Shown: one piece after another, positions 5,126-30,707 of the stretch
Position numbering within the stretch: position 1 is the first letter of the stretch
Layout: each line of letters begins with the position of its first letter
DNA from: a virus
Virus record (IMG/VR): IMGVR_UViG_3300045988_168250
Span: 1 to 30,707 of that record
Strand: one strand, 5' to 3'
Length of the DNA: 30,707 nucleotides
Notes under the pieces: generated by a model
The model's database searches: none
Seen by the model: only the letters and a program-made list of their open reading frames with translations
Told to the model about the DNA's origin: nothing
Translations under genes and position numbers: made by a program

Positions 5126-6055
5126 CTACTTTACCTTGTCCTCGAGCGCGAAGAACGCGTTAGTGTCCGCAATTGCCCAGCCGAAGGACGCCTCACACAG
5201 CAGGGCCTCCTGGTTGGTCTGGAAAAGCGAGGTAGTGGTAGCGCCGTCAGTGATGGACGCCTCACTCGAGTAGCGGAAAGTAATTTCATTCGCAAAGCCG
5301 TAGACCAGCTGAGACCAGTCACCACCAATCGCGCGGACCTTAGTGTCCGCGTTGGTGCCTACCTGGCCGGAGACCACGTCGCCGTATGCGGTGGGCAGAC
5401 CGAAGACCTTGCCCATGTCGTCGGTCAGGTCAAGGCTGGACTGGTAAATCGGGCGGCCGTTAGTGTCGGTCGCGCCCATGAGCTCAAGACGCAGGGAATC
5501 ATCCGCGGCCAAGCCGTTCACGCGGTAGCCCAGGCGCGCATCCTGGACGGCCTTAATACCGGCGATGATATCGCCGGAAATGCCGCCCTTAGCCTGCGCG
5601 GTGGTGCCCAGCTCGACGCGCTTAGTGGTCTGGTTCACAAACTCAACGCCGGGGATAGCCTGGCCGTTGGTGGACTTGCCGTGGAGCACTGCGAGGTCGA
5701 AAGCGCGGGTAATTGCGCCGGCGAGCTGCTGCTGAATGATGCCCTCCAGGCCGAGCTTGTCGGCCTTGGCCAGCTCTTCGGACCAGGTGATGATTGCCGC
5801 GACCTTGATGGGGCGCAGAATCTTCGAGGACAGGCCGAATGAGGTGACGGGCTTCATGCCAGCTTCGCCCACGACGCCAGCCTCCGGGCGGGAGGTCTGG
5901 ACAGCGACGGACGAGCCGGTGAGCGGGAGTGCCAGCTGGTCACCGGCGAGCTTCTTCACGACCGAATCCTGCACGGCCTTGGTAATGACCTTGCTAGAGA
6001 ATTCGGGCGGGAAAATGTTAGTGTTCTTGAGCGAATCAAGGGTCAGAGAAGCCAT
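5126..6055 (-). CDS. Major capsid protein (HK97 fold), 309 aa.
   Basis: ORF 5126..6055. Very strong RBS AAGGAAGGAG. Composition is typical of HK97-like MCPs (Gly/Ala/Thr-rich with a conserved central segment). Flanked by scaffold and head-tail genes. Confidence 0.8.
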   Translation of the reverse strand: MASLTLDSLKNTNIFPPEFSSKVITKAVQDSVVKKLAGDQLALPLTGSSVAVQTSRPEAGVVGEAGMKPVTSFGLSSKILRPIKVAAIITWSEELAKADKLGLEGIIQQQLAGAITRAFDLAVLHGKSTNGQAIPGVEFVNQTTKRVELGTTAQAKGGISGDIIAGIKAVQDARLGYRVNGLAADDSLRLELMGATDTNGRPIYQSSLDLTDDMGKVFGLPTAYGDVVSGQVGTNADTKVRAIGGDWSQLVYGFANEITFRYSSEASITDGATTTSLFQTNQEALLCEASFGWAIADTNAFFALEDKVK

Positions 6056-6625: not shown

Positions 6626-7465
6626 CTAGAGGGGCACGCCGACCGGCGCGCCGCGCTCTTTGAGTGCTTGTTCTAGCCATGCCTGGGCGTTTTTCCCCGG
6701 GTACTTGTCGGGGTGAGCTCTCACATCGTCTATTGTAGCGTGATAGAAATCACGAAGCTGTTCGTATTCGCGGCGGCCGGCCCAGCCCGTCGATTTGTAG
6801 ACCGGCACCACCATGCAGTCGCAGTTATTGTGAAACTTGTCACGCCCTCCCGCGCCGCCCTTGCCGGCGTGATGCGCCGACGAGTAGACAGGCCCACGCG
6901 AGGCGAGCATCACGCAGAAACCGCACGACGTGCGGCCAGTCAGGACGCGCGCCCAGCCGACAGGGTACACGCGGGCTTTGCCGTCCTCTCCCACCGTGCG
7001 GTTGAACGCTTCCGCGGACTGGTGCGGCTCCAATGCTACTGGCTTCACCCCGGTGGGGAATATTTTCTCGGGCGGCATGAAATTTGGGATCACCGGGTCT
7101 GGCACCGCGCGCATCACCTGACGGCGCGCGGCCATGCGGACGTGCCGCGCCAAAATCCCGGCCAGGTATTTGTCGCTCTTGCCGGTGGACTCACGGAAAG
7201 CCTGGACGACCGAGCCCGCACGGTACGGCTCTGGCTCGGGGATGAACGGCTCGACGCTCAGCCCGCGCGCCGCATCACGGAGCATCTGGTCCCCAATCTT
7301 CGCCGCCTCCAGCCGAGCCGACCGGGTAAGCTTCAAAATCTCAGACTCAGCGAGCGCACGCTGAGCCGCATCCGACCTATCCACCGTCGAGAGAATCGTT
7401 AGCACCTGTGGGGTGAACAGCGCCACAATCGACCGGATAGCCGCGGCGTATGCGCTGATTATCAT
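6626..7465 (-). CDS. Minor head / head morphogenesis protein of the MuF and SPP1 gp7 family, 279 aa.
   Basis: Sits directly after portal with an ATGA overlap. The C-terminal motifs TSCGFCVML...G and HNNCDC match the Cys-x2-Cys and HPNCRC signatures of the Phage_Mu_F domain. Confidence 0.7.
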   Translation of the reverse strand: MIISAYAAAIRSIVALFTPQVLTILSTVDRSDAAQRALAESEILKLTRSARLEAAKIGDQMLRDAARGLSVEPFIPEPEPYRAGSVVQAFRESTGKSDKYLAGILARHVRMAARRQVMRAVPDPVIPNFMPPEKIFPTGVKPVALEPHQSAEAFNRTVGEDGKARVYPVGWARVLTGRTSCGFCVMLASRGPVYSSAHHAGKGGAGGRDKFHNNCDCMVVPVYKSTGWAGRREYEQLRDFYHATIDDVRAHPDKYPGKNAQAWLEQALKERGAPVGVPL

Positions 7466-11409: not shown

Positions 11410-12097
11410 GGGTGGGGGCCTCCTCGATGTGCTCTAGGATGAAGCCGCCGTGCGGGGCTTGCTTGGTTGGCTTCAGTGCGCGGATGATGCGCCAGCCGCC
11501 GCCGAGTACGTGGCCTTCCAGGGCCTCGATGCAGATTGGGGATTGCTCGGAGGCGACGGTGACGAGCGTGGGCTCTGCGTCGCTGGGCTTGCCGGGGATT
11601 TTGAAGTCTATGTGTGAGAGGCATTTGCCGAGGTGTGAGAGGCGCTCGTGCTCGCTATCGTACCGGCTGGCGATGCGGACGACGGCGAATTTTTGGGTTT
11701 CCGTTCCTAGGTGGACGTCCAGCTCTAGGATGGCCGTGGTCGCGGCTTCGCTGAGGTACCCGATGGCGATGTTCTCTAGCGTGGGGCCCAAGCCGTTGTC
11801 GTGGAGGAAATATTCGATGTCTTCAATATCACATTCGGTCGCGTTGCTGTATAGGCGCAGGGGCACGACCGCCTTAAGCGGATCGCCGTTCACGGGGGCA
11901 GCGTTGAGAATCTGGCACAGGCGCGCCATAGTCGCTCCGCTTGCTCGGGCTATGAATTTCAGGTCACCCGACGGGTTCGTCTCAAGTGTGACGTCGAGGT
12001 TTGCGAGCGCGGGGTGTCGCTTGATGGCGGCTTCGGGGTCGAAGATTTCCCCATCGGGGTTCTTGAACATGGTCTTTTGGCGGTTGGTGGTGCTCAT
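11399..12097 (-). CDS. Hypothetical protein, about 232 aa. ATG at 12097 overlaps the upstream stop as ATGA.
   Basis: Long ORF 11399..12145 trimmed to the internal Met that overlaps the stop of 12094..12318. Confidence 0.5.
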   Translation of the reverse strand: MSTTNRQKTMFKNPDGEIFDPEAAIKRHPALANLDVTLETNPSGDLKFIARASGATMARLCQILNAAPVNGDPLKAVVPLRLYSNATECDIEDIEYFLHDNGLGPTLENIAIGYLSEAATTAILELDVHLGTETQKFAVVRIASRYDSEHERLSHLGKCLSHIDFKIPGKPSDAEPTLVTVASEQSPICIEALEGHVLGGGWRIIRALKPTKQAPHGGFILEHIEEAPTHER

Positions 12098-12318
12098 TTG
12101 GGGGCCTTTCGGTTGTAGGGGGCTCGGTGGGTCTTTTGGAGCCATGCGTCGTAGCGGCGCATTTCGGTCTCGGTGTAGAGGCGCACGGTCTGTGTTGGGG
12201 TTTGGGCGTATTCGATTTCGGGTGTGAGGTGGCCGGCGGCTCGGTCTAGGGCGACGAGGTATCGGTGGCGCCCGATGCGGGCGGCAACCTTGGCCTCGGT
12301 TAGCAGGTTTGTGGTCAT
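12094..12318 (-). CDS. Small HTH DNA-binding protein, excisionase/AlpA-like, 74 aa.
   Basis: The N-terminal LTEAKVAARIGRHRYLVALDRAAG region resembles HTH_17 excisionase-family helices. Confidence 0.4.
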   Translation of the reverse strand: MTTNLLTEAKVAARIGRHRYLVALDRAAGHLTPEIEYAQTPTQTVRLYTETEMRRYDAWLQKTHRAPYNRKAPK

Positions 12319-12326
12319 CGTGTCTT

Positions 12327-12704
12327 TCAGTGGTGGTTATTTTCTGGGTTTAGGCGGGCGCGGCGGGCTTGGAGCCACGCGTCGAGAGCGCGGCGGTTGT
12401 GTTCGGTTGTGGCGCGTATCTCTTCCTCGGTTTTTCTGGGTTTGGGGCGGGTGCGGGGCGGGACGTTCGCGATTTTCCCGGCCTTTTTGGCTCGGGAGTA
12501 TGCGCGTTTGCGGCATGTGTCGCAGTCGGGGTTTGTGTCGTCGAGGTCCCATCCGCATTTTACGCAGCTGGTTTTATCGGGGATTGTGTCTTTTGCGTCG
12601 GGGTGCCCTTGGGCGCGCCATCTGGAGTGCCGGGCGGAACAGCGGTGGCACCCGGGGGTGTATTCCTCGCGGGGGCCACCGCATCCCGGGCATGTGGTAG
12701 TCAT
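12327..12704 (-). CDS. Cys-rich zinc-ribbon protein with four CxxC pairs, 125 aa.
   Basis: CPGC...CHRC and CVKC...CDTC motifs. Basic C-terminus. Confidence 0.5.
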   Translation of the reverse strand: MTTTCPGCGGPREEYTPGCHRCSARHSRWRAQGHPDAKDTIPDKTSCVKCGWDLDDTNPDCDTCRKRAYSRAKKAGKIANVPPRTRPKPRKTEEEIRATTEHNRRALDAWLQARRARLNPENNHH

Positions 12705-13633: not shown

Positions 13634-13683
13634 AGCGGGTCATTTGGGTTTCTCCTTGGTTTGGTGTAGGGGGTTTGTTCCCC

Positions 13684-13713
13684 CTACACCTATATTATGG
13701 CACATGTGCCAAC
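13684..13713 (-). promoter_or_regulatory. Promoter P1 on the minus strand: TTGATA-N18-CATAAT, with the perfect palindrome TGGCACATGTGCCA (13688-13701) in the spacer and overlapping the -10. A perfect 11-bp hairpin (13653-13680) lies at the predicted 5' end of the transcript.
   Basis: Read directly. The same architecture is seen at 17656-17685 and 20143-20171. Confidence 0.55.
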
Positions 13714-13739
13714 CTGTTATCAAGGCGGCTGGCTGTGAA

Positions 13740-14234
13740 TTACGCCACAATAAGCTCCAAATCCTGAATATCGAAGACCCCGCCGGCGGACATGACCAGC
13801 TCGGCATAGGCGGCGACCGTCTCGACTGTCAGCGGCATCGGGTGGACGCGCAGCAGCTCGCCGTACTCCGGGAACCACCGGCGGGTGTCAAAATCACCGG
13901 CCAGGAATTCGTCTACCGCGACGCCGCGGATGCCCTTCCAGTCTCGTGCGTCGATGCTGGTGATGCGGTCGACTACCAGGTGGTATGAGCTGATGGTTCC
14001 GCCGTGTGGGTGCGGGCAGTCGATAAACCAGCGGTGAGCGCGGGTGTAGGCTCGGGTGGTGTTCGCGTCGATGCGGGCCGTGGTCTCTTCGCTGAAGGCC
14101 GGCAGGCTGAGAAGCTTCGCGGCGGCCTCGAGTACGGCGACGTGCTCGCGCAGGGTGCGGGCCTCGCTCTTGATGGCCTTGTCGTTGATGACGCCCTGGA
14201 TGGTGAAGTGGGTGAGGGGTGTGATGGTGATCAT
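13740..14234 (-). CDS. Hypothetical protein, 164 aa. RBS AAAGGAGAAA.
   Basis: ORF with a strong SD. Confidence 0.5.
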   Translation of the reverse strand: MITITPLTHFTIQGVINDKAIKSEARTLREHVAVLEAAAKLLSLPAFSEETTARIDANTTRAYTRAHRWFIDCPHPHGGTISSYHLVVDRITSIDARDWKGIRGVAVDEFLAGDFDTRRWFPEYGELLRVHPMPLTVETVAAYAELVMSAGGVFDIQDLELIVA

Positions 14235-14330: not shown

Positions 14331-14609
14331 TTAGTGCTTGCGGGCGTATGCGTCGCCGTAATTCTCGTCTACCCAGCGGTAGAACGCTTCGCGAGCGCTC
14401 ATCTTGCCGTAGCTTTCGCCTTCGCCCCTTGCGCTCAGCTTTGCGTAGGTGTCCCAGTCGCCGGTGTTGTAGACGGTGACGGTGCTGTTCTTGCCGCGGG
14501 GCGGGCGCTCGAGGTATGCGTAGGTGTCGTCGAGGCGGTCGATGCTGTAGACGGCGGGGCAAGCGATGTAGAGCTTGAATCCCTTGTAGGTGTAGGTGGG
14601 GCGTGCCAT
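14331..14609 (-). CDS. Hypothetical protein, 92 aa. ATG 14609, RBS AAGGAGAAC.
   Basis: Track ORF 14331..14672 trimmed to the Met with a strong SD. Confidence 0.5.
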   Translation of the reverse strand: MARPTYTYKGFKLYIACPAVYSIDRLDDTYAYLERPPRGKNSTVTVYNTGDWDTYAKLSARGEGESYGKMSAREAFYRWVDENYGDAYARKH

Positions 14610-15841: not shown

Positions 15842-16317
15842 TTTTTCGCCCCTTCGGTCAGAAATTTCAGATTTGCGGGGGGCTCGGCGCGCTCTAGCGG
15901 CGGCACTTCCCGGTACTCCACCGGGGTGATGTCGGCGGCGCGGCGCACATAGGCCGGCAGCTCGCCCGCGGCGGCAGTGTAGGCGAACACGAGCTCATTC
16001 CAGTCCTCCACCTCATCGCATGTGGCGGGGGTGAGCTCGGAGAGCTTGCGTTGGATGGCGCGAGCGCGGCGGAGCTTGCCGCCGATTTTCTTGTCCAGCT
16101 CATCCCACGCCTTGGTAATATGCCCGGGCTGGAGCTTCAGCATTTGGGGAACGTGGTAGATGTGCGCGACGATGAGCGCGGCGTGCTGGTCTGGCACATC
16201 CTGGAGCCATACCTCGGACCAGGATTTCGCGCGGGCCGGCGTCATTGGCTCATCCTGGAGGCGGGTATCTGCGCTCGCGGCGAGCGAGTACAGCTGGATG
16301 ATGGTCTCTGGCTTCAT
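15838..16317 (-). CDS. Hypothetical protein, 159 aa, translationally coupled between the initiator-like gene and SSB.
   Basis: ATGA and GTGA overlaps on both sides. Confidence 0.5.
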   Translation of the reverse strand: MKPETIIQLYSLAASADTRLQDEPMTPARAKSWSEVWLQDVPDQHAALIVAHIYHVPQMLKLQPGHITKAWDELDKKIGGKLRRARAIQRKLSELTPATCDEVEDWNELVFAYTAAAGELPAYVRRAADITPVEYREVPPLERAEPPANLKFLTEGAKK

Positions 16318-17087
16318 GCTCGGTCCTCCGTCCAGGGGTCGGTCGTCTCGATTGCGAGGGGCTGGTCCGTGAAGGCGGCCGCGCCGGCTTGGAGCATCTG
16401 GGCGGCGGCTTCATCCCATGTCTGTCGGCGGCGGTTAGCGCGCACCTGCTGGTCTGCCGGGATGGTCCACCGGTCACGCTCTAGCCACCGCTGCGGGTAG
16501 ATTACCCACCGGATATCGTCGGCGGTGAGGTTTTGCTTGGCCCAGGCTCCGAACTCTTGTGCGGCGCGCACGATGGTCTCGGGGGTCTCGCGCTTGACGG
16601 CGGCCTTCCACGCGGTGTGTGCTTTGCAGCGGTCGATGGGGCGCGGGTATGCGGCCCAGAAAGCTTCAAAAGCGAGGTCGCCCTTGCCGGCGGGTGCGCG
16701 GCGGGGCTTGGGGGTTGCCGGCGCGGGGCCGGCGGGCTCTGCAGGGGCGGGCGCGCTCGCAGGCTCGGGGGCCGGTTCACTGGTGACGCTGGCCTGCTGG
16801 GAGGCGCGGATTGCGTCGGGATGGAGGCGGTAGCGGGGGGTGGTGCCGAGCCGCTCGATGCGGGTTGCCCAGCCGTAGGATTCCAGGGCGCGGATTGCGG
16901 CGCGAATCGTATTACGGCTGAGACCGGTATGGGTCTCCAGCGTGGCGAATGACGGCCAGCACTCATGTGTTTGTTCGCTGGTGAAGGTGGCGAGGGCGTG
17001 GAGCGTAATCATCTTTGACGTGCTCAGCTGTGCGCCGGTGGGGGTTCGTGTTGCCCGGAGGGCTGCCGCGATGGCTGTGATGCTCAT
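16314..17087 (-). CDS. Winged-HTH DNA-binding protein, a putative replication initiator or replisome organiser, 257 aa.
   Basis: The N-terminal HTH (LHALATFTSEQTHECWPSFATLETHTGLSRNTIRAAIRALESYGW) is followed by a Pro/Ala linker. It is the first gene of the SSB/RusA operon and sits next to the iteron-like repeats. Confidence 0.5.
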   Translation of the reverse strand: MSITAIAAALRATRTPTGAQLSTSKMITLHALATFTSEQTHECWPSFATLETHTGLSRNTIRAAIRALESYGWATRIERLGTTPRYRLHPDAIRASQQASVTSEPAPEPASAPAPAEPAGPAPATPKPRRAPAGKGDLAFEAFWAAYPRPIDRCKAHTAWKAAVKRETPETIVRAAQEFGAWAKQNLTADDIRWVIYPQRWLERDRWTIPADQQVRANRRRQTWDEAAAQMLQAGAAAFTDQPLAIETTDPWTEDRA

Positions 17088-17183: not shown

Positions 17184-17285
17184 TAAATAGTTAGTTAAAT
17201 AGTTCGGGGGTAATGGCTGGTACCCCCCCATACCAGCCATTGCCTCCCCCCATACCAGCCATTGCCTCCCCCCATACCAGCCATT
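17184..17285. repeat. Iteron-like array. It holds two copies of taaatagtt (17184-17204) and three direct 22-bp copies of cccccc-ataccagccatt-gcct (17223-17285). One inverted copy, aatggctggta (17212-17222), forms a palindrome with the first direct copy.
   Basis: Read directly. Candidate origin of replication or regulator-binding array in the divergent intergenic region. Confidence 0.6.
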
Positions 17286-17655
17286 GGTAAGGGTGGTTTT
17301 TGGTAGGGGGGGGCATTTTGGGCAAAAAAATACCCCGCATAGGCCAAACCATGAAAGCCAATGCGGGGTATTTCAACCAAGAAACCCAAAAGGTCACTAC
17401 TAGTTTACCACAGCATAAGGGCCCCGGAAAACCATGCCGGGGCCCTTATCGACTTCATCACACCTCACAAAAGGAGATGAAGTCATTATACCGCATCTTC
17501 GCAATGCCGAGTGAGTGACATACCAAGTATAGCACGAGAGCCCCCAAATAATTGGGGGCTCTCATGATGACTATTCCGTGTCCACAGCAGCAGTGACTCA
17601 ACTCCCTACCAGTGTACCACACTAGCCGGTGTGTCCAGTATCACGCCGCCGCGCC

Positions 17656-17685
17656 TTGATAATCATCTGGCAGGCGTGCCACAAT
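17656..17685 (+). promoter_or_regulatory. Promoter P2 on the plus strand: TTGATA-N18-CACAAT, with the palindrome TGGCAGGCGTGCCA (17668-17681) overlapping the -10. It drives the plus-strand operon.
   Basis: Read directly. Same architecture as P1 and P6. Confidence 0.55.
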
Positions 17686-17712
17686 GGAATTACCGACCGA
17701 AAGGAACCCCAA

Positions 17713-17893: not shown

Positions 17894-18295
17894 ATGACCA
17901 CCGCAACTTGGCACGACCTCTACGAGCCCGCCCGCACCTCCGAGGATTTCCCCACCGCCTCCATCTTCAGGAACTGGGCCCGCCGCCCCGACGACAACCG
18001 CCGCCTAGCCACCATCGCCGGCGTACACGACTCATGGATTATCCGCCTCGCACATCGCATCCGCCACACTCTCGACTCGCGCATCCCCAAGAGCGAGCGC
18101 GTATGGCTGGTACGCACCCCCGTGCACGGCCCCGAGACCTGGGCCGGCGAACCCCTATACGAGGTTGCCCTCCAGGCCTCGCAGGAGACCGGCAGCCTCC
18201 ACGGATACGCCGTCTCGGCTCTCCGTCGAGTCGAAGCCGAGGAAATCGTCACCGCCCTCCGCGCCCTCGACGAGCATATCATCCGCCTCATCTAG
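17894..18295 (+). CDS. Hypothetical protein, 133 aa.
   Basis: ORF in the same operon. The competing ORF 17908..18312 is a Pro/Arg-rich frame shadow. Confidence 0.5.
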   Translation: MTTATWHDLYEPARTSEDFPTASIFRNWARRPDDNRRLATIAGVHDSWIIRLAHRIRHTLDSRIPKSERVWLVRTPVHGPETWAGEPLYEVALQASQETGSLHGYAVSALRRVEAEEIVTALRALDEHIIRLI

Positions 18296-20107: not shown

Positions 20108-20142
20108 TCCCCGTTGTGTGATGAGGTTCACACGCTCAAAAC

Positions 20143-20171
20143 TTGCGACAGGCTGGCAGGCCTGCCATACT
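20143..20171 (+). promoter_or_regulatory. Promoter P6 on the plus strand: TTGCGA-N17-CATACT, with the palindrome TGGCAGGCCTGCCA (20154-20167) overlapping the -10. Upstream of the acidic protein gene.
   Basis: Read directly. Third copy of the TGGCA-N4-TGCCA operator. Confidence 0.5.
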
Positions 20172-20220: not shown

Positions 20221-20511
20221 ATGAAGGCAACCATCACCGCAACCCTCAACAACCGCGGCGGCATGGAAGGCATCGCAGCCAAAACCACCGACGGCACCAT
20301 CTACATCGACCTCAACGAAACCTACCCGGACTGCTCCGACATCTACGACTACGACATGCTTGAAGCGCATCTCGCAGACCTCAAGGTATTCGCCAAGGAC
20401 CTCGCGGGAACCTACCCTTGGGATGACGAGGAATTCAAGGTTGAGTTCGGTGCCATCAAGTCCGAGGATGACGAAGAAATCGTCTGGGACGCCACCATCA
20501 CCAAGCTCTAA
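20221..20511 (+). CDS. Small, highly acidic protein, 96 aa, with about 22 Asp/Glu against 8 Lys/Arg. Candidate DNA-mimic or anti-restriction-like early protein.
   Basis: Strong RBS AAGGAGAAC. Composition was counted from the translation. Confidence 0.55.
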   Translation: MKATITATLNNRGGMEGIAAKTTDGTIYIDLNETYPDCSDIYDYDMLEAHLADLKVFAKDLAGTYPWDDEEFKVEFGAIKSEDDEEIVWDATITKL

Positions 20512-20565: not shown

Positions 20566-21150
20566 ATGGAAATTCTCAACGTGAGGCAGCACACCAAGAC
20601 CTATTTCACGGCAATGGTCACGGACGACTACGGCCTGGACCACCCCATCCGTGTACGCCTCGACAGCGACGGGGCCGTGCTCTTCCAGCTGACCACCACC
20701 CTACGAGCTGGCGGATACTCGGACACCCCCATCTCGACCATCCGTAACTTCCGCAACCTCGGCATCCTCAGCGGAGACAAGGCGACTTTTTTCGATGTCG
20801 GCCCGGCCTGCCACGCCGCGACCGAGCAGGAGATGCTAGACATCATCCGCAAGTCCAGGAAAACCCCGGCCGGGTTCGCGGGCATTATCCGCGAGATCGC
20901 GCAGCGGGTCCGCAACGCAGCCTCCGCCCTGCTGACGGCACCTGAGCCGGCCCCTAAGCCGACACTCAAGGCCAGCCCCCGTGTCCGTCGTACCCCGTCG
21001 CAGGCCAGCCTCGCAGACCAGGCCGCCGGCATCGCCTGGCTCACCACAATTCTGTCAGACACCACGCTCCCCTACAGCCTGCACGAGCAGGCACTCCGCA
21101 CCCGCGCAGGCCTCCTCACCATCCGAGACACCCTCCAGGAGACAAAATGA
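20566..21150 (+). CDS. Hypothetical protein, 194 aa. ATG 20566, RBS GGAGAGGA.
   Basis: Track ORF 20548..21150 trimmed to the ATG. Confidence 0.5.
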   Translation: MEILNVRQHTKTYFTAMVTDDYGLDHPIRVRLDSDGAVLFQLTTTLRAGGYSDTPISTIRNFRNLGILSGDKATFFDVGPACHAATEQEMLDIIRKSRKTPAGFAGIIREIAQRVRNAASALLTAPEPAPKPTLKASPRVRRTPSQASLADQAAGIAWLTTILSDTTLPYSLHEQALRTRAGLLTIRDTLQETK

Positions 21151-21508: not shown

Positions 21509-21865
21509 CTAACCGGCGAGAGGAGTGTCACGATTCACACCCTGCACCTCAGTGCCGTGGTCACTGCGCAGGTCGCGGGTAGCGGGCTGTGCGGCGGGCG
21601 CGGGCATCACAGAGATGCCCGACACCACAGCCGCCGCGATATCCTCGGCGGACGGCACCTCGACAGGCTCCGGGGCCGGCGGGGTCGGCGGCACGGTCTT
21701 GACATTCGCCGCGGCCATGACGAGCGCAAAAACCGCCGGCACAAGCGGCAGAATGACATTCAGACGCTCACTGGTGATGAGCCCGTAGGCTACGGCGATT
21801 GCGCCGATAGCGGCGCACAGCTGGTAGGTTGCCGCGCGGAGGCGTGCAGCCTTCTCATAATCCAT
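21509..21865 (-). CDS. Holin, two TM helices, about 118 aa.
   Basis: Immediately downstream of the endolysin. Two hydrophobic helices and a charged C-terminus. ATG 21865 with RBS GAGGAA. Confidence 0.6.
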   Translation of the reverse strand: MDYEKAARLRAATYQLCAAIGAIAVAYGLITSERLNVILPLVPAVFALVMAAANVKTVPPTPPAPEPVEVPSAEDIAAAVVSGISVMPAPAAQPATRDLRSDHGTEVQGVNRDTPLAG

Positions 21866-28976: not shown

Positions 28977-29758
28977 TAGCCTACCTCCCTAATTGTCAGC
29001 GAGAGTGTGCGCCACATCTCCCTCAGGTGAAATTCATAGCTCGTGTACGTGGTCTGCGCCTCCTCGATGATGACCGAGGCGGCACCAGCCCCCATGTCCC
29101 AGGGTACCGGCCCGGCAGTCCACGTGACTTGGGGGCGCGTCACAGTGGTGGAGCCGCGCGTCTGAATTTTCACCGCGCACGCCCCGAGCGGGAGCGCCGG
29201 CATGGTCACCGAGACACGCTCCATGAGCTCACCGGACGGCCGCGCAGTCACAGCCGGCCCGACCGGCTGGCCCGCCGCGTTCACCGGCTGGACCACCAGG
29301 ACACCGGCCGCGCCGGCCATGTCCACGGTCACCGTGACCGGCTCGCCCGGGATGCACGGGCACGCCTCCGCAATCGTGATAGGGCCACCACCAGTGCGGG
29401 AGCGTGCACCGGCACCGCCGGCGCCATCCGCTGCGCCTGCGTTAGCCACGCCCGAGAGCATCGACTCCGCCGGTGTCAGCACGTTAGTGACCGCCGCCTC
29501 ATCCGAGATGAATACCCAGGGGCCATCACCGAACGCGCCGGCCACCAGCTGAGCCAGCTCCGCGGTCTCCGCATTGGTGCCGGTCACTTCCAGAGACCAT
29601 TCGCGGCGGCGCGCAGAAGCTGGGGACGACACGAAAGCCCACCGGCGGGCCGGTGCAGACTGCACATCATATCGTGTGGGGTTCGTCACCTTCACAGGGG
29701 TCGGCCACAAGATTTTATACATCCTGCCCAGCTCACCAATGTATCCAGCCACTAGCAA
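28976..29758 (-). CDS. Dit-like distal tail protein, 260 aa. Start uncertain: TTG 29758, GTG 29752 or ATG 29722.
   Basis: First gene after the TMP stop on the same strand. Coupled to the Tal gene (TAATG overlap). Confidence 0.55.
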   Translation of the reverse strand: MLVAGYIGELGRMYKILWPTPVKVTNPTRYDVQSAPARRWAFVSSPASARRREWSLEVTGTNAETAELAQLVAGAFGDGPWVFISDEAAVTNVLTPAESMLSGVANAGAADGAGGAGARSRTGGGPITIAEACPCIPGEPVTVTVDMAGAAGVLVVQPVNAAGQPVGPAVTARPSGELMERVSVTMPALPLGACAVKIQTRGSTTVTRPQVTWTAGPVPWDMGAGAASVIIEEAQTTYTSYEFHLREMWRTLSLTIREVG

Positions 29759-30707
29759 ATCCTCTCTGCGCGGCGGGCCATCTGGAGGAAAGCCCGCTCG
29801 TCTACGGCTCCCAGGCGGGACAGCACGTCCACCAGCTGGGAGATAACCTCAGCGTCCAGGCCGCCGGCCTGCTGTGCGGGGGATGCCGCGGGGGCCGCCG
29901 GGACGGGGGTCGCCGGGACGACAGCCGACAGGTCCGCCGCCGGGGACAGATTGAAATCCATGCCGCCGAGCGCGAAGCTCGCAGCAGAAGCCAGCTGCCC
30001 GCGACCCTCCTCAATGCTGTTAGCAAAATCACCAATCAGCGCACGACCCGAGTAAGTCGTGTAGCCCCGGCCACTGAAGCGGCCGCGCTTAGCCGGCGAG
30101 TGCGGGAAGAAATCGCCAATCGCCTTCATGACTCCGCCGACCGCATCCGTCACGCCGCTGAGCATACTCTTGATTCCGTCGATGAATCCTCCGATGAGGG
30201 CCTTACCGGAGTCCACGAGCATGCCGCCAAGGTTGCCTAGGCCGTCCTTGATTTTCTGCGGCATGGACTTCACAAATTCGACCGCGGACCCGACGCCATC
30301 GCTAATCGCCTTGGTGATGCCGTTCCACGCGCCCACCACGAAATCGCCGATGCCATTCCAGAGGTTGTTCCAGATGTCCACCAGCATTTTCGCAAGGTTC
30401 TCGAAAATGTGCATGACAACATCGAAAGCGCCCGTGATGGTGTTCACAATGAAATCGAGAATCCCCTTCAGTACGTCGAGGATGCCATTCCAGGCGCCTT
30501 CCCAATCACCACGCAGAGCCGACAGGAAAACGTTCAGGATGCCTGTGATAATGTTCACAGCGTCCGAGATGACTTTGCCGATGAAACCGAAAATGTCCGA
30601 GACCGTTTTGCCGATAAATTCGAAAGCGGGAGAAAAAGTCTGGATGAGGAAAGCCACAATCGGGGCGAGGAAAGACACAATCTGCGCGGCAATCTCCACA
30701 ATGGTCG
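29752..30707 (-). CDS. Tape measure protein, C-terminal part. This is the same gene as 1..2102, wrapped. Stop TAG at 29754-29752.
   Basis: ORF 29752..30699 (MEIAAQIVSFLAP...) carries on the reading frame of the minus-strand ORF that leaves the window at position 1. The 40-bp terminal duplication proves the junction. Confidence 0.85.
   Translation of the reverse strand, partial: TIVEIAAQIVSFLAPIVAFLIQTFSPAFEFIGKTVSDIFGFIGKVISDAVNIITGILNVFLSALRGDWEGAWNGILDVLKGILDFIVNTITGAFDVVMHIFENLAKMLVDIWNNLWNGIGDFVVGAWNGITKAISDGVGSAVEFVKSMPQKIKDGLGNLGGMLVDSGKALIGGFIDGIKSMLSGVTDAVGGVMKAIGDFFPHSPAKRGRFSGRGYTTYSGRALIGDFANSIEEGRGQLASAASFALGGMDFNLSPAADLSAVVPATPVPAAPAASPAQQAGGLDAEVISQLVDVLSRLGAVDERAFLQMARRAERIC
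30668..30707. repeat. Exact 40-bp duplicate of window positions 1-40. This is the assembly overlap of a circular contig; the unit genome is 30,667 bp.
   Basis: Direct comparison shows aggaaagacacaatctgcgcggcaatctccacaatggtcg at both ends. Confidence 0.95.

Follow-up and report, generated by a model that had tools for sequence, protein, structure and literature searches.

Do three operons of an uncultivated phage answer to one DNA-binding protein? The question arises from a stretch of 30,707 nucleotides (IMG/VR record IMGVR_UViG_3300045988_168250, positions 1 to 30,707; analyzed whole and called the window below), the genome of an actinobacterial phage in which three predicted promoters, designated P1, P2 and P6, carry the same 14-bp dyad, TGGCA-N4-TGCCA, across the upstream edge of the -10 element. 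An original prediction, drawn from the letters of the window, held that complete dyads occur at these three promoters only and that a single dimeric regulator, encoded by phage or host, coordinately controls the operons behind them. Our assessment is that the dyad is rather probably an operator: one homodimer, probably phage-encoded, would bind it and block P1, P2 and P6 together.

Three exact dyads in a fixed promoter register

Scanning the window for the exact pattern yields three matches; dinucleotide-preserving shuffles (n=100) predict 0.02, and three are reached in 0/100 of them. Copies with one mismatch are absent from the window, and those with up to two mismatches number 14 against 17.7 expected, which is the chance rate; a halo of degenerate copies is therefore absent. 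The P1 dyad, TGGCACATGTGCCA (TGGCA-CATG-TGCCA, 13698-13711), and the P6 dyad, TGGCAGGCCTGCCA (TGGCA-GGCC-TGCCA, 20154-20167), are perfect 14-bp palindromes; the P2 dyad, TGGCAGGCGTGCCA (TGGCA-GGCG-TGCCA, 17668-17681), a putative operator, matches the pattern as exactly. All three lie between genes, with no copy inside a coding region, and face non-structural operons.

Each dyad is embedded in what is predicted to be an early-type extended -10 promoter of the sigma-70/SigA type. On the plus strand, P2 reads TTGATA-atcatc-TGGCAGGCGTGCCA, with its -35 at 17656-17661 (found by a promoter scan; TTGATA or TTGATG in relatives), an 18-bp spacer, the -10 sequence CACAAT at 17680-17685, and a predicted transcription start site (TSS) near 17692. 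P1, on the minus strand (core promoter 13694-13723, likewise from the promoter scan), reads TTGATA-acaggt-TGGCACATGTGCCA, with 18 bp between its -35 (TTGATA, 13723-13718) and its -10 (CATAAT, 13699-13694), and P6 (20143-20171, plus strand) reads TTGCGA-caggc-TGGCAGGCCTGCCA, with -10 CATACT at a spacer of 17 bp. At all three, a TG stands one base ahead of the -10 (17677-17678 at P2), making it an extended -10; the hexamer is TANNNT-like and the -35 is 17-18 bp away. The extended -10 is flagged by an independent promoter scan at P1 and P2; P6 is absent from the list of that scan, and is read from its sequence and from alignment with related phages of two lineages, A and B (see below).

With the TSS assumed to lie 7 nucleotides past the -10 (a prediction from sequence, as is the numbering that follows from it), the dyad spans about -24 to -11 at P1, P2 and P6, has its center at about -17.5 and shares two bases with the -10, namely its own last two and the first two of the hexamer. 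The register of dyad to -10 is identical at the three promoters, and the distance from the -35 is 5 or 6 bp. The 5-N4-5 arrangement places the half-site centers 9 bp apart. There is a single dyad at each promoter, with no adjacent operator copies for cooperative binding. A DNA-binding protein acting as a dimer would suit this geometry and would compete with RNA polymerase for the segment between -24 and -11. The right half, TGCCA, also has another identity: it is the TG of the extended -10 plus the CA that opens the -10 hexamer. The original prediction is thus borne out in its descriptive part, that is, in the count of three, the location of all sites between genes in front of non-structural operons, and the common layout (-35 TTGATA or TTGCGA, dyad 5-6 bp further on, CA opening the -10).

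Conservation in lineage A, absence from lineage B

Relatives of this phage, reached through homologs of its RecT, are present in many metagenomic contigs of 29-33 kb and fall into two lineages. Lineage A consists of the window and 21 further loci (22 loci, ~12 distinct genomes); lineage B consists of loci L072, L073/74, L091, L092 and L093, plus the more distant L070. In lineage A the dyad is found at every P1, P2 and P6, and the number of exact dyads in each locus equals the number of these promoters present, with none elsewhere in the locus. The half-sites, including those of P2, are retained: among 16 distinct promoter sequences, TGG is found in 16/16, the C at position 4 in 14/16, the A at position 5 in 15/16, and TGCCA in 16/16; the central N4 and the five bases ahead of the dyad retain only 0.3-1.0 bit per position (N4 by itself, 0.4-1.0 bit). 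At P6 the stretch from -35 to dyad has turned over completely and varies in length (caggc, agggc, ccctat, gcggt, ccccat), with no change in the register between dyad and -10; L001 and L088 have an indel that brings the spacer back to 18 bp, and the dyad keeps its place relative to the -10. The P1 and P6 14-mers of L080, L088 and L104 are mutual reverse complements (TGGCATGTATGCCA and TGGCATACATGCCA), from which it follows that both orientations of the element work, as is expected for a symmetric dimer. Taken at the level of sequence, this pattern of conservation is the footprint that a site read by a symmetric dimer would be expected to leave, and it supports the dyad as a selected element common to the three promoters.

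The promoters of lineage B are homologous, with the same upstream box (see below), the same N11, -35 (TTGCAC) and -10, but without the TGGCA left half. A right half without a left half is seen there: TGCCATACT is present at the P2-type promoter of L092 and the P6-type promoter of L093, reading ...GTGCCATACT. The right half is therefore ancestral core-promoter sequence. The left half alone would be the operator-specific part, an innovation of lineage A added to a core promoter, and the dyad, with its putative regulon, is confined to that one lineage of this phage group.

The two lineages recombine. L098 (contig ERR11554217_241) and L091 are natural A/B mosaics: the former has A-type promoters with all three dyads, followed past P6 by B-type genes, with the breakpoint directly past the promoter; in the latter, B-type promoters are combined with an endolysin that is A-like (91% identity) and with a homolog, 62% identical, of the gene at 14331 of the window. 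The tail modules of L079 and L073 are ~80% identical in nucleotides. It follows that lineages A and B meet in the same hosts and cells. The host is probably Rothia, as suggested by the endolysin of the window, which shares 66-68% identity with lysins encoded in prophages of Rothia mucilaginosa and of other Rothia genomes; in the Rothia DNA around those lysins there is no exact dyad and no cassette, although the 52 kb covered are too few to be informative. Two pattern scans of IMG/VR carried little information: one returned 66 single, apparently random matches, and the other, with the full-cassette pattern, returned one close relative only. A literature search for the dyad motif found no record of it.

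The promoter family and its upstream box

A second common element, missed in the original prediction together with a fourth promoter, is found by aligning the three promoter regions: GTG-N8-CAC, ending exactly 11 bp before each -35. At P2 it is TGTGTCCAGTATCACG (17630-17645, plus strand; kept in lineages A and B), at P1 TGTGGCGTAATTCACA (13734-13749, minus strand; seen in the alignment and by pattern scan), and at P6 TGTGATGAGGTTCACA (20117-20132, plus strand), a perfect TGTGA-N6-TCACA. The extended pattern GTG-N8-CAC-N11-TTG matches six times in the window, against 0.28 expected, and four of the six are P1, P2, P6 and a promoter designated P4 (14644-14698, minus strand), which has box TGTGATGCACTTCACA (14698-14683), -35 TTGCCA (14672-14667) and -10 TATAGT (14649-14644), and no dyad. 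P4 drives the genes for 92- and 164-amino acid (aa) proteins at 14609-13740 (minus strand). By their common sequence plan P1, P2 and P6 belong with P4 to a predicted four-member promoter family, whose members are clearly paralogous modules. In relatives, the P4 spacer holds everted TGCCA/TGGCG-like half-sites (e.g., GCCATGCCAATGGCG in L080).

The consensus of CRP/GlxR sites is TGTGA-N6-TCACA (PMC7999487). The box of P6 matches it at 10/10 positions, that of P4 at 9/10, P1 at 8/10 and P2 at 7/10. CAC-N11-TTG is invariant, in lineages A and B, in every P1, P2, P4 and P6 that a pattern of fixed spacing recovers; in distant L070 a CAT replaces the CAC of the box and the spacing is unchanged. The box is centered ~54 bp before the predicted TSS, and its proximal half differs systematically by lineage (TCACA versus GCACC/ACACC). 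Most simply, the upstream box is probably a site for an activator of the CRP/GlxR type, furnished by the host, or for a phage-encoded equivalent.

The related pattern TGTG-N6-TTCACA (up to one mismatch) is found 14 times in the window, against 1.1 expected. Further copies, at 30544-30559, 30433-30448, 2422-2437, 5624-5639, 6829-6844, 7412-7427 and 21524-21539, are intragenic and adjoin no promoter; one intragenic copy, TGTGATAATGTTCACA, inside the tape-measure gene, is perfect. The copy at 21524, the sole one comparable in relatives, is kept in L075 and not in L080, L088 or L100.

Candidate regulators

Classical repressor families (HTH_3/XRE, TetR, MarR and similar) are not detected in the phage by Pfam or PHROGs, even at relaxed E-values. 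Features that might betray a DNA-binding protein are nevertheless found: the HTH_36 domain of Rep, weak HTH_17-like domains, a Bro-N fold and an orphan protein with a stretch resembling a helix-turn-helix (HTH). Within the operons of P1, P2 and P6 such hints vary in strength, from a fold match (Bro-N, 20566-21150) through a weak, sub-threshold HTH_17-like likeness (12094-12318) to an HTH-like stretch noticed by eye (17894-18295).

The last of these, g17894 (17894-18295, plus strand), encodes a 133-aa orphan protein, is the second gene of the P2 operon and contains the HTH-like stretch RRLATIAGVHDSWIIRLAHRIRH. All dyad-bearing genomes, the mosaic L098 among them, have its A-type version, and its counterpart in dyad-less lineage B is 39-45% identical; the second helix, putatively the recognition helix, is constant among the lineage-A proteins and differs in those of lineage B (HDPLIITISNRLRS). 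An exhaustive HMMER search of 1.8 billion representative proteins found no homolog outside the phage group, a profile search against PDB sequences returned only noise, there is no Pfam match, and a PHROG hint of 'CII-like' is weak (E = 0.3). The protein is the best candidate for the dyad binder, although unproven in that capacity, and its place in the P2 operon would make the circuit autoregulatory. Tracking of lineage is a property that g17894 shares with Rep, the 59-aa membrane protein and the 164-aa g13740, all of which occur in A-type form in every dyad-bearing genome and are <50% identical or absent in lineage B; the exonuclease tracks lineage too, yet remains 66-68% identical in lineage B. 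The AF2 (AlphaFold 2) model of lineage-A-specific g13740 (13740-14234), at a pLDDT of 51, is not interpretable.

The gene that the original prediction had named as encoding a candidate HTH protein, g12094 (12094-12318, minus strand, in the P1 operon), specifies a 74-aa basic protein. The HTH assignment is plausible, in the form of an HTH_17/Xis-like protein: the protein aligns weakly with the HTH_17-like C-terminal domain of long Zn-ribbon homologs (hhalign E = 2.8e-4, probability 41%), in which Pfam HTH_17 and Phage_Cox matches are below threshold. Its role as the regulator fares less well: the operon that encodes it is highly mosaic, and in L076 it is missing although all three dyads are there. 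The double Zn-ribbon protein itself is 125 aa long in the window (12327-12704), 196-198 aa in L001 (1752-2342), L080 (3265-3861) and L088, and 160 aa in L072 (3756-4238); the longer forms end in the C-terminal HTH_17/Cox-like domain, which the separate 74-aa protein of the window resembles. The pair looks like the outcome of fission, fusion or duplication of a domain in the P1 operon.

The 194-aa protein of the P6 operon (20566-21150, plus strand) combines an N-terminal Bro-N/KilA-N/APSES fold with a C-terminal helical hairpin; its structure matches include Mbp1 (1bm8), in which the fold is DNA-binding. Rep, the replication initiator (16314-17087, minus strand; HTH_36/winged helix by Pfam and PHROG matches), tracks the dyad lineage, at 79-90% identity within lineage A versus 42-44% in lineage B. 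Three tandem 22-bp iterons, CCCCCCATACCAGCCATTGCCT, at 17224-17289, adjoin its gene. The iterons are unlike the dyad, and Rep is left as a low-probability candidate for the dyad binder. The probable replication origin is the segment 17186-17289, in which the iterons are accompanied by an AT-rich repeat and by a partial copy in inverted orientation; the iterons of lineage B differ.

Proposed mechanism and alternatives

The sequences show where the sites lie with respect to consensus promoter elements, that lineage A conserves them throughout, and that they are confined to three promoters; from this we infer protein binding, its repressive sign and the likely source of the regulator. One homodimeric protein would read both 5-bp half-sites on one face of the helix. 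Sitting at -24 to -11, the dimer would cover the TG of the extended -10 and, at the upstream edge of the -10 hexamer, its first two bases; occupancy of the dyad should therefore block sigma-A/RNA polymerase. P1, P2 and P6 would be switched off together, and P4, the replication promoters and the late promoters, which are without dyad, would escape repression. The strictly phased upstream box would recruit the activator, whether host CRP/GlxR or a phage protein. Of the single dimeric regulator and coordinate control that were originally predicted, the shared, selected dyad and its dimer-like footprint stand; the right half can no longer count as independent evidence, the scheme applies to one lineage, and coordinate control is something that we infer from the common site.

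Several considerations weigh against such a scheme. No repressor gene is recognizable in the Pfam and PHROGs scans of the phage, and the candidates that can be named each have a defect: g17894 and Rep are physically linked to P2, which confounds their co-variation with the dyad, L076 lacks the HTH_17 candidates, and the Bro-N candidate does not track the dyad, as L098 shows. On the DNA, the right half is explained by core-promoter function and is present in lineage B without a left half, and the likeness of N4 among the promoters of one genome could reflect gene conversion instead of protein contacts. As for the upstream box, a center at about -54 is not the canonical E. coli class I/II CRP position, and a proximal half that is specific to lineage is not something that a shared host CRP would require.

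The regulator might instead belong to the host: the dyad would be the site of a Rothia TetR-, GntR- or FNR-like dimer, recruited by lineage-A phages to tie early transcription to host physiology, with no phage regulator involved. An annotated repressor is not detected in the phage, its candidate proteins fail strict co-occurrence with the dyad, the 5-N4-5 geometry is that of FNR-type boxes, and the original prediction allowed for a host protein as well. What makes this unlikely, if by no means negligible, is the restriction of the operator to one lineage, given that lineages A and B recombine, have tail and lysis modules in common and so see the same hosts; a lineage-specific cis element is therefore easier to explain by a phage-borne protein, and we regard a phage-encoded dyad binder as more likely than a host-encoded one. 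That no dedicated regulator exists, and that a strong-promoter cassette (extended -10 plus spacer) has spread by duplication or gene conversion with incidental palindromy, would agree with the four clearly paralogous promoter modules, with the tendency of N4 to match within a genome, and with the double identity of TGCCA as extended -10 and start of the -10, retained in lineage B without the left half. We consider it improbable: the left half, at -24 to -20, where we know of no role for TGGCA in SigA promoters, is as conserved as the -10 while the neighboring spacer bases and N4 diverge; the dyad is retained at P6 through indels and complete sequence turnover of the stretch from -35 to dyad; the same 14-mer is used in both orientations; and P4 and all lineage-B promoters have consensus-like hexamers and lack the left half, which suggests that a promoter of this kind does not need it.

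Two further readings turn on the place of the dyad within the promoter. A dimer lying between -35 and -10 could activate in the manner of MerR, realigning the two hexamers, possibly by way of the HTH_17 (MerR-superfamily-like) proteins that the P1 operon encodes in both lineages. This is very improbable, however, with spacers of 17-18 bp, near optimal, in place of the 19-20 bp of MerR-type promoters, with a dyad centered at about -17.5 and overlapping the -10 instead of lying at mid-spacer, and with the HTH_17 proteins absent from L076. The TGGCA at -24 and the TGC at about -14 also bear a superficial likeness to sigma-54-type -24/-12 promoters (TGGCAC-N5-TTGCW). That reading is rejected, with next to no probability left to it, on spacing (GG-N7-GC as read from the sequence versus the GG-N10-GC consensus); good sigma-70-type -35 and -10 hexamers are also present, and the phage is actinobacterial, with Rothia as its probable host. 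To our knowledge, Actinobacteria lack rpoN.

Operator function for the dyad, with a homodimer that probably comes from the phage, thus remains the interpretation to which we assign the better chance. A more elaborate version of it is speculative and must be considered doubtful: the dyad would be the operator of a new, homolog-less regulator family (g17894) and would form, with the CRP-like box, a two-input module, activated by host cAMP/CRP and autorepressed by the phage, over the early genes of widespread uncultivated Rothia phages of the human oral cavity and gut.

The operons and the rest of the genome

The window is a complete, circularly permuted genome of ~30.7 kb, as follows from the tape-measure gene (minus strand), which runs across the window ends and is split by them into 1-2070 and 29752-30707 (its product is ~1005-1024 aa in relatives). 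Structural and lysis genes occupy the minus strand: TerL, an SPP1-type portal, capsid, tail tube, holin and an endolysin of the Amidase_2+SH3_5 type. An integrase is not detected in the window. TerL is 35-39% identical to the TerL of Gordonia, Arthrobacter, Corynebacterium and Mycobacterium phages, which are distant relatives only, and searching the deposited phage collection at the DNA and protein levels, with the 12-21 kb region and a 739-aa tail protein, returned nothing.

The P1 operon (minus strand) extends from 13643 down to 11137 and consists of small genes, among them those for the double Zn-ribbon protein and the 74-aa basic protein. At the predicted 5' end of its mRNA, a perfect 11-bp hairpin, GGTGTAGGGGG-AACAAA-CCCCCTACACC (13663-13690, minus strand; RNA fold -24.5 kcal/mol, z = -4.6), is kept in all lineage-A P1 leaders, and could stabilize the mRNA or have a regulatory role. 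In the P2 operon, genes for the 59-aa membrane protein and the 133-aa orphan precede those for a YqaJ exonuclease and RecT. The P6 operon, with a bidirectional terminator behind it, encodes a 96-aa acidic protein, the 194-aa protein and a 101-aa basic, membrane-anchored protein. Its very acidic first product (20221-20511, isoelectric point 4.1) is confined to lineage A, lineage B having at that position a paralog of the gene at 14331-14609 of the window; it might be a DNA mimic or an anti-defense protein.

Between P2 and the origin, on the minus strand, 17320-17490 presents a TATAAT (17490-17485) and then two strong hairpins, the second of which (ATACCCCGCAT...ATGCGGGGTAT) is followed by a run of seven T residues. 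The element could specify a small non-coding RNA or be a terminator between P2 and the origin; an Rfam search of the window gave no match. Several relatives have a gene for an N6/N4 DNA methyltransferase between SSB and RusA (5413-6096 in L075/L076, 9068-9265 in L098, 5409-5957 in L100) that is absent from the window.

Comparison with other regulatory systems

The operators of phages lambda and 434 (14-17 bp dyads at PR and PL, bound by Cro/CI HTH dimers) are the nearest analogy to the proposed arrangement. There, too, a short dyad with half-sites spaced by roughly one helical turn lies across part of the core promoter, so that binding would exclude RNA polymerase, and several phage promoters use the same site, for coordinated control. 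Unlike lambda and 434, the phage of the window has one operator at each promoter instead of a tripartite OR/OL array, and no divergent cI/cro pair, HTH_3/XRE gene or integrase is detected in it. The system is therefore probably a temporal switch of the lytic cycle rather than an immunity region.

Actinobacterial phages provide other precedents. The stoperators of mycobacteriophage L5, bound by gp71, are asymmetric, 13 bp long and present in ~30 copies per genome, mostly inside transcription units, and phiC31 has conserved inverted repeats at a set of near-identical early promoters. A short conserved motif repeated at the early promoters of an actinobacterial phage is common to these cases and the present one; unlike the L5 stoperators, the three sites described here are symmetric and strictly at promoters. 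The phage yielded no homolog of L5 gp71 and none of the phiC31 c repressor.

Bacterial sites offer partial likenesses. The upstream box (not the dyad) resembles CRP/GlxR sites of the class I-like kind in consensus, and in having the fixed distance from the -35 that is expected of an activator contacting RNA polymerase. It departs from canonical CRP/GlxR sites in its center, at about -54, and in its lineage-specific proximal half, and binding by a Rothia CRP is putative. FNR-type boxes (TTGAT-N4-ATCAA; centered at -41.5 when activating) have a 5-N4-5, 14-bp geometry identical to that of the dyad; the half-site sequence is different, and a center at about -17.5 is a repressing position. Extended -10 (TGn) promoters are reported to be common in Actinobacteria; they explain the T and G of the right half at all three promoters, but not the TGGCA of the left half or the palindromy.

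Significance

Operators that overlap phage early promoters are already standard, as lambda/434, L5 and phiC31 testify; what is new is an instance in an uncharacterized phage group. That group appears in many public metagenome assemblies, and the related Rothia prophage lysins point to a Rothia host. If the proposed scheme is true, the promoter/operator pair could serve high-GC Actinobacteria as an expression part that can be switched. Lineages with and without the dyad, and the mosaics between them, provide a natural contrast for assigning an orphan regulator to its site. Should the dyad be a true operator, four promoters, one operator and one activator box would constitute a compact and tractable regulatory map for a group of phages without a cultured representative.

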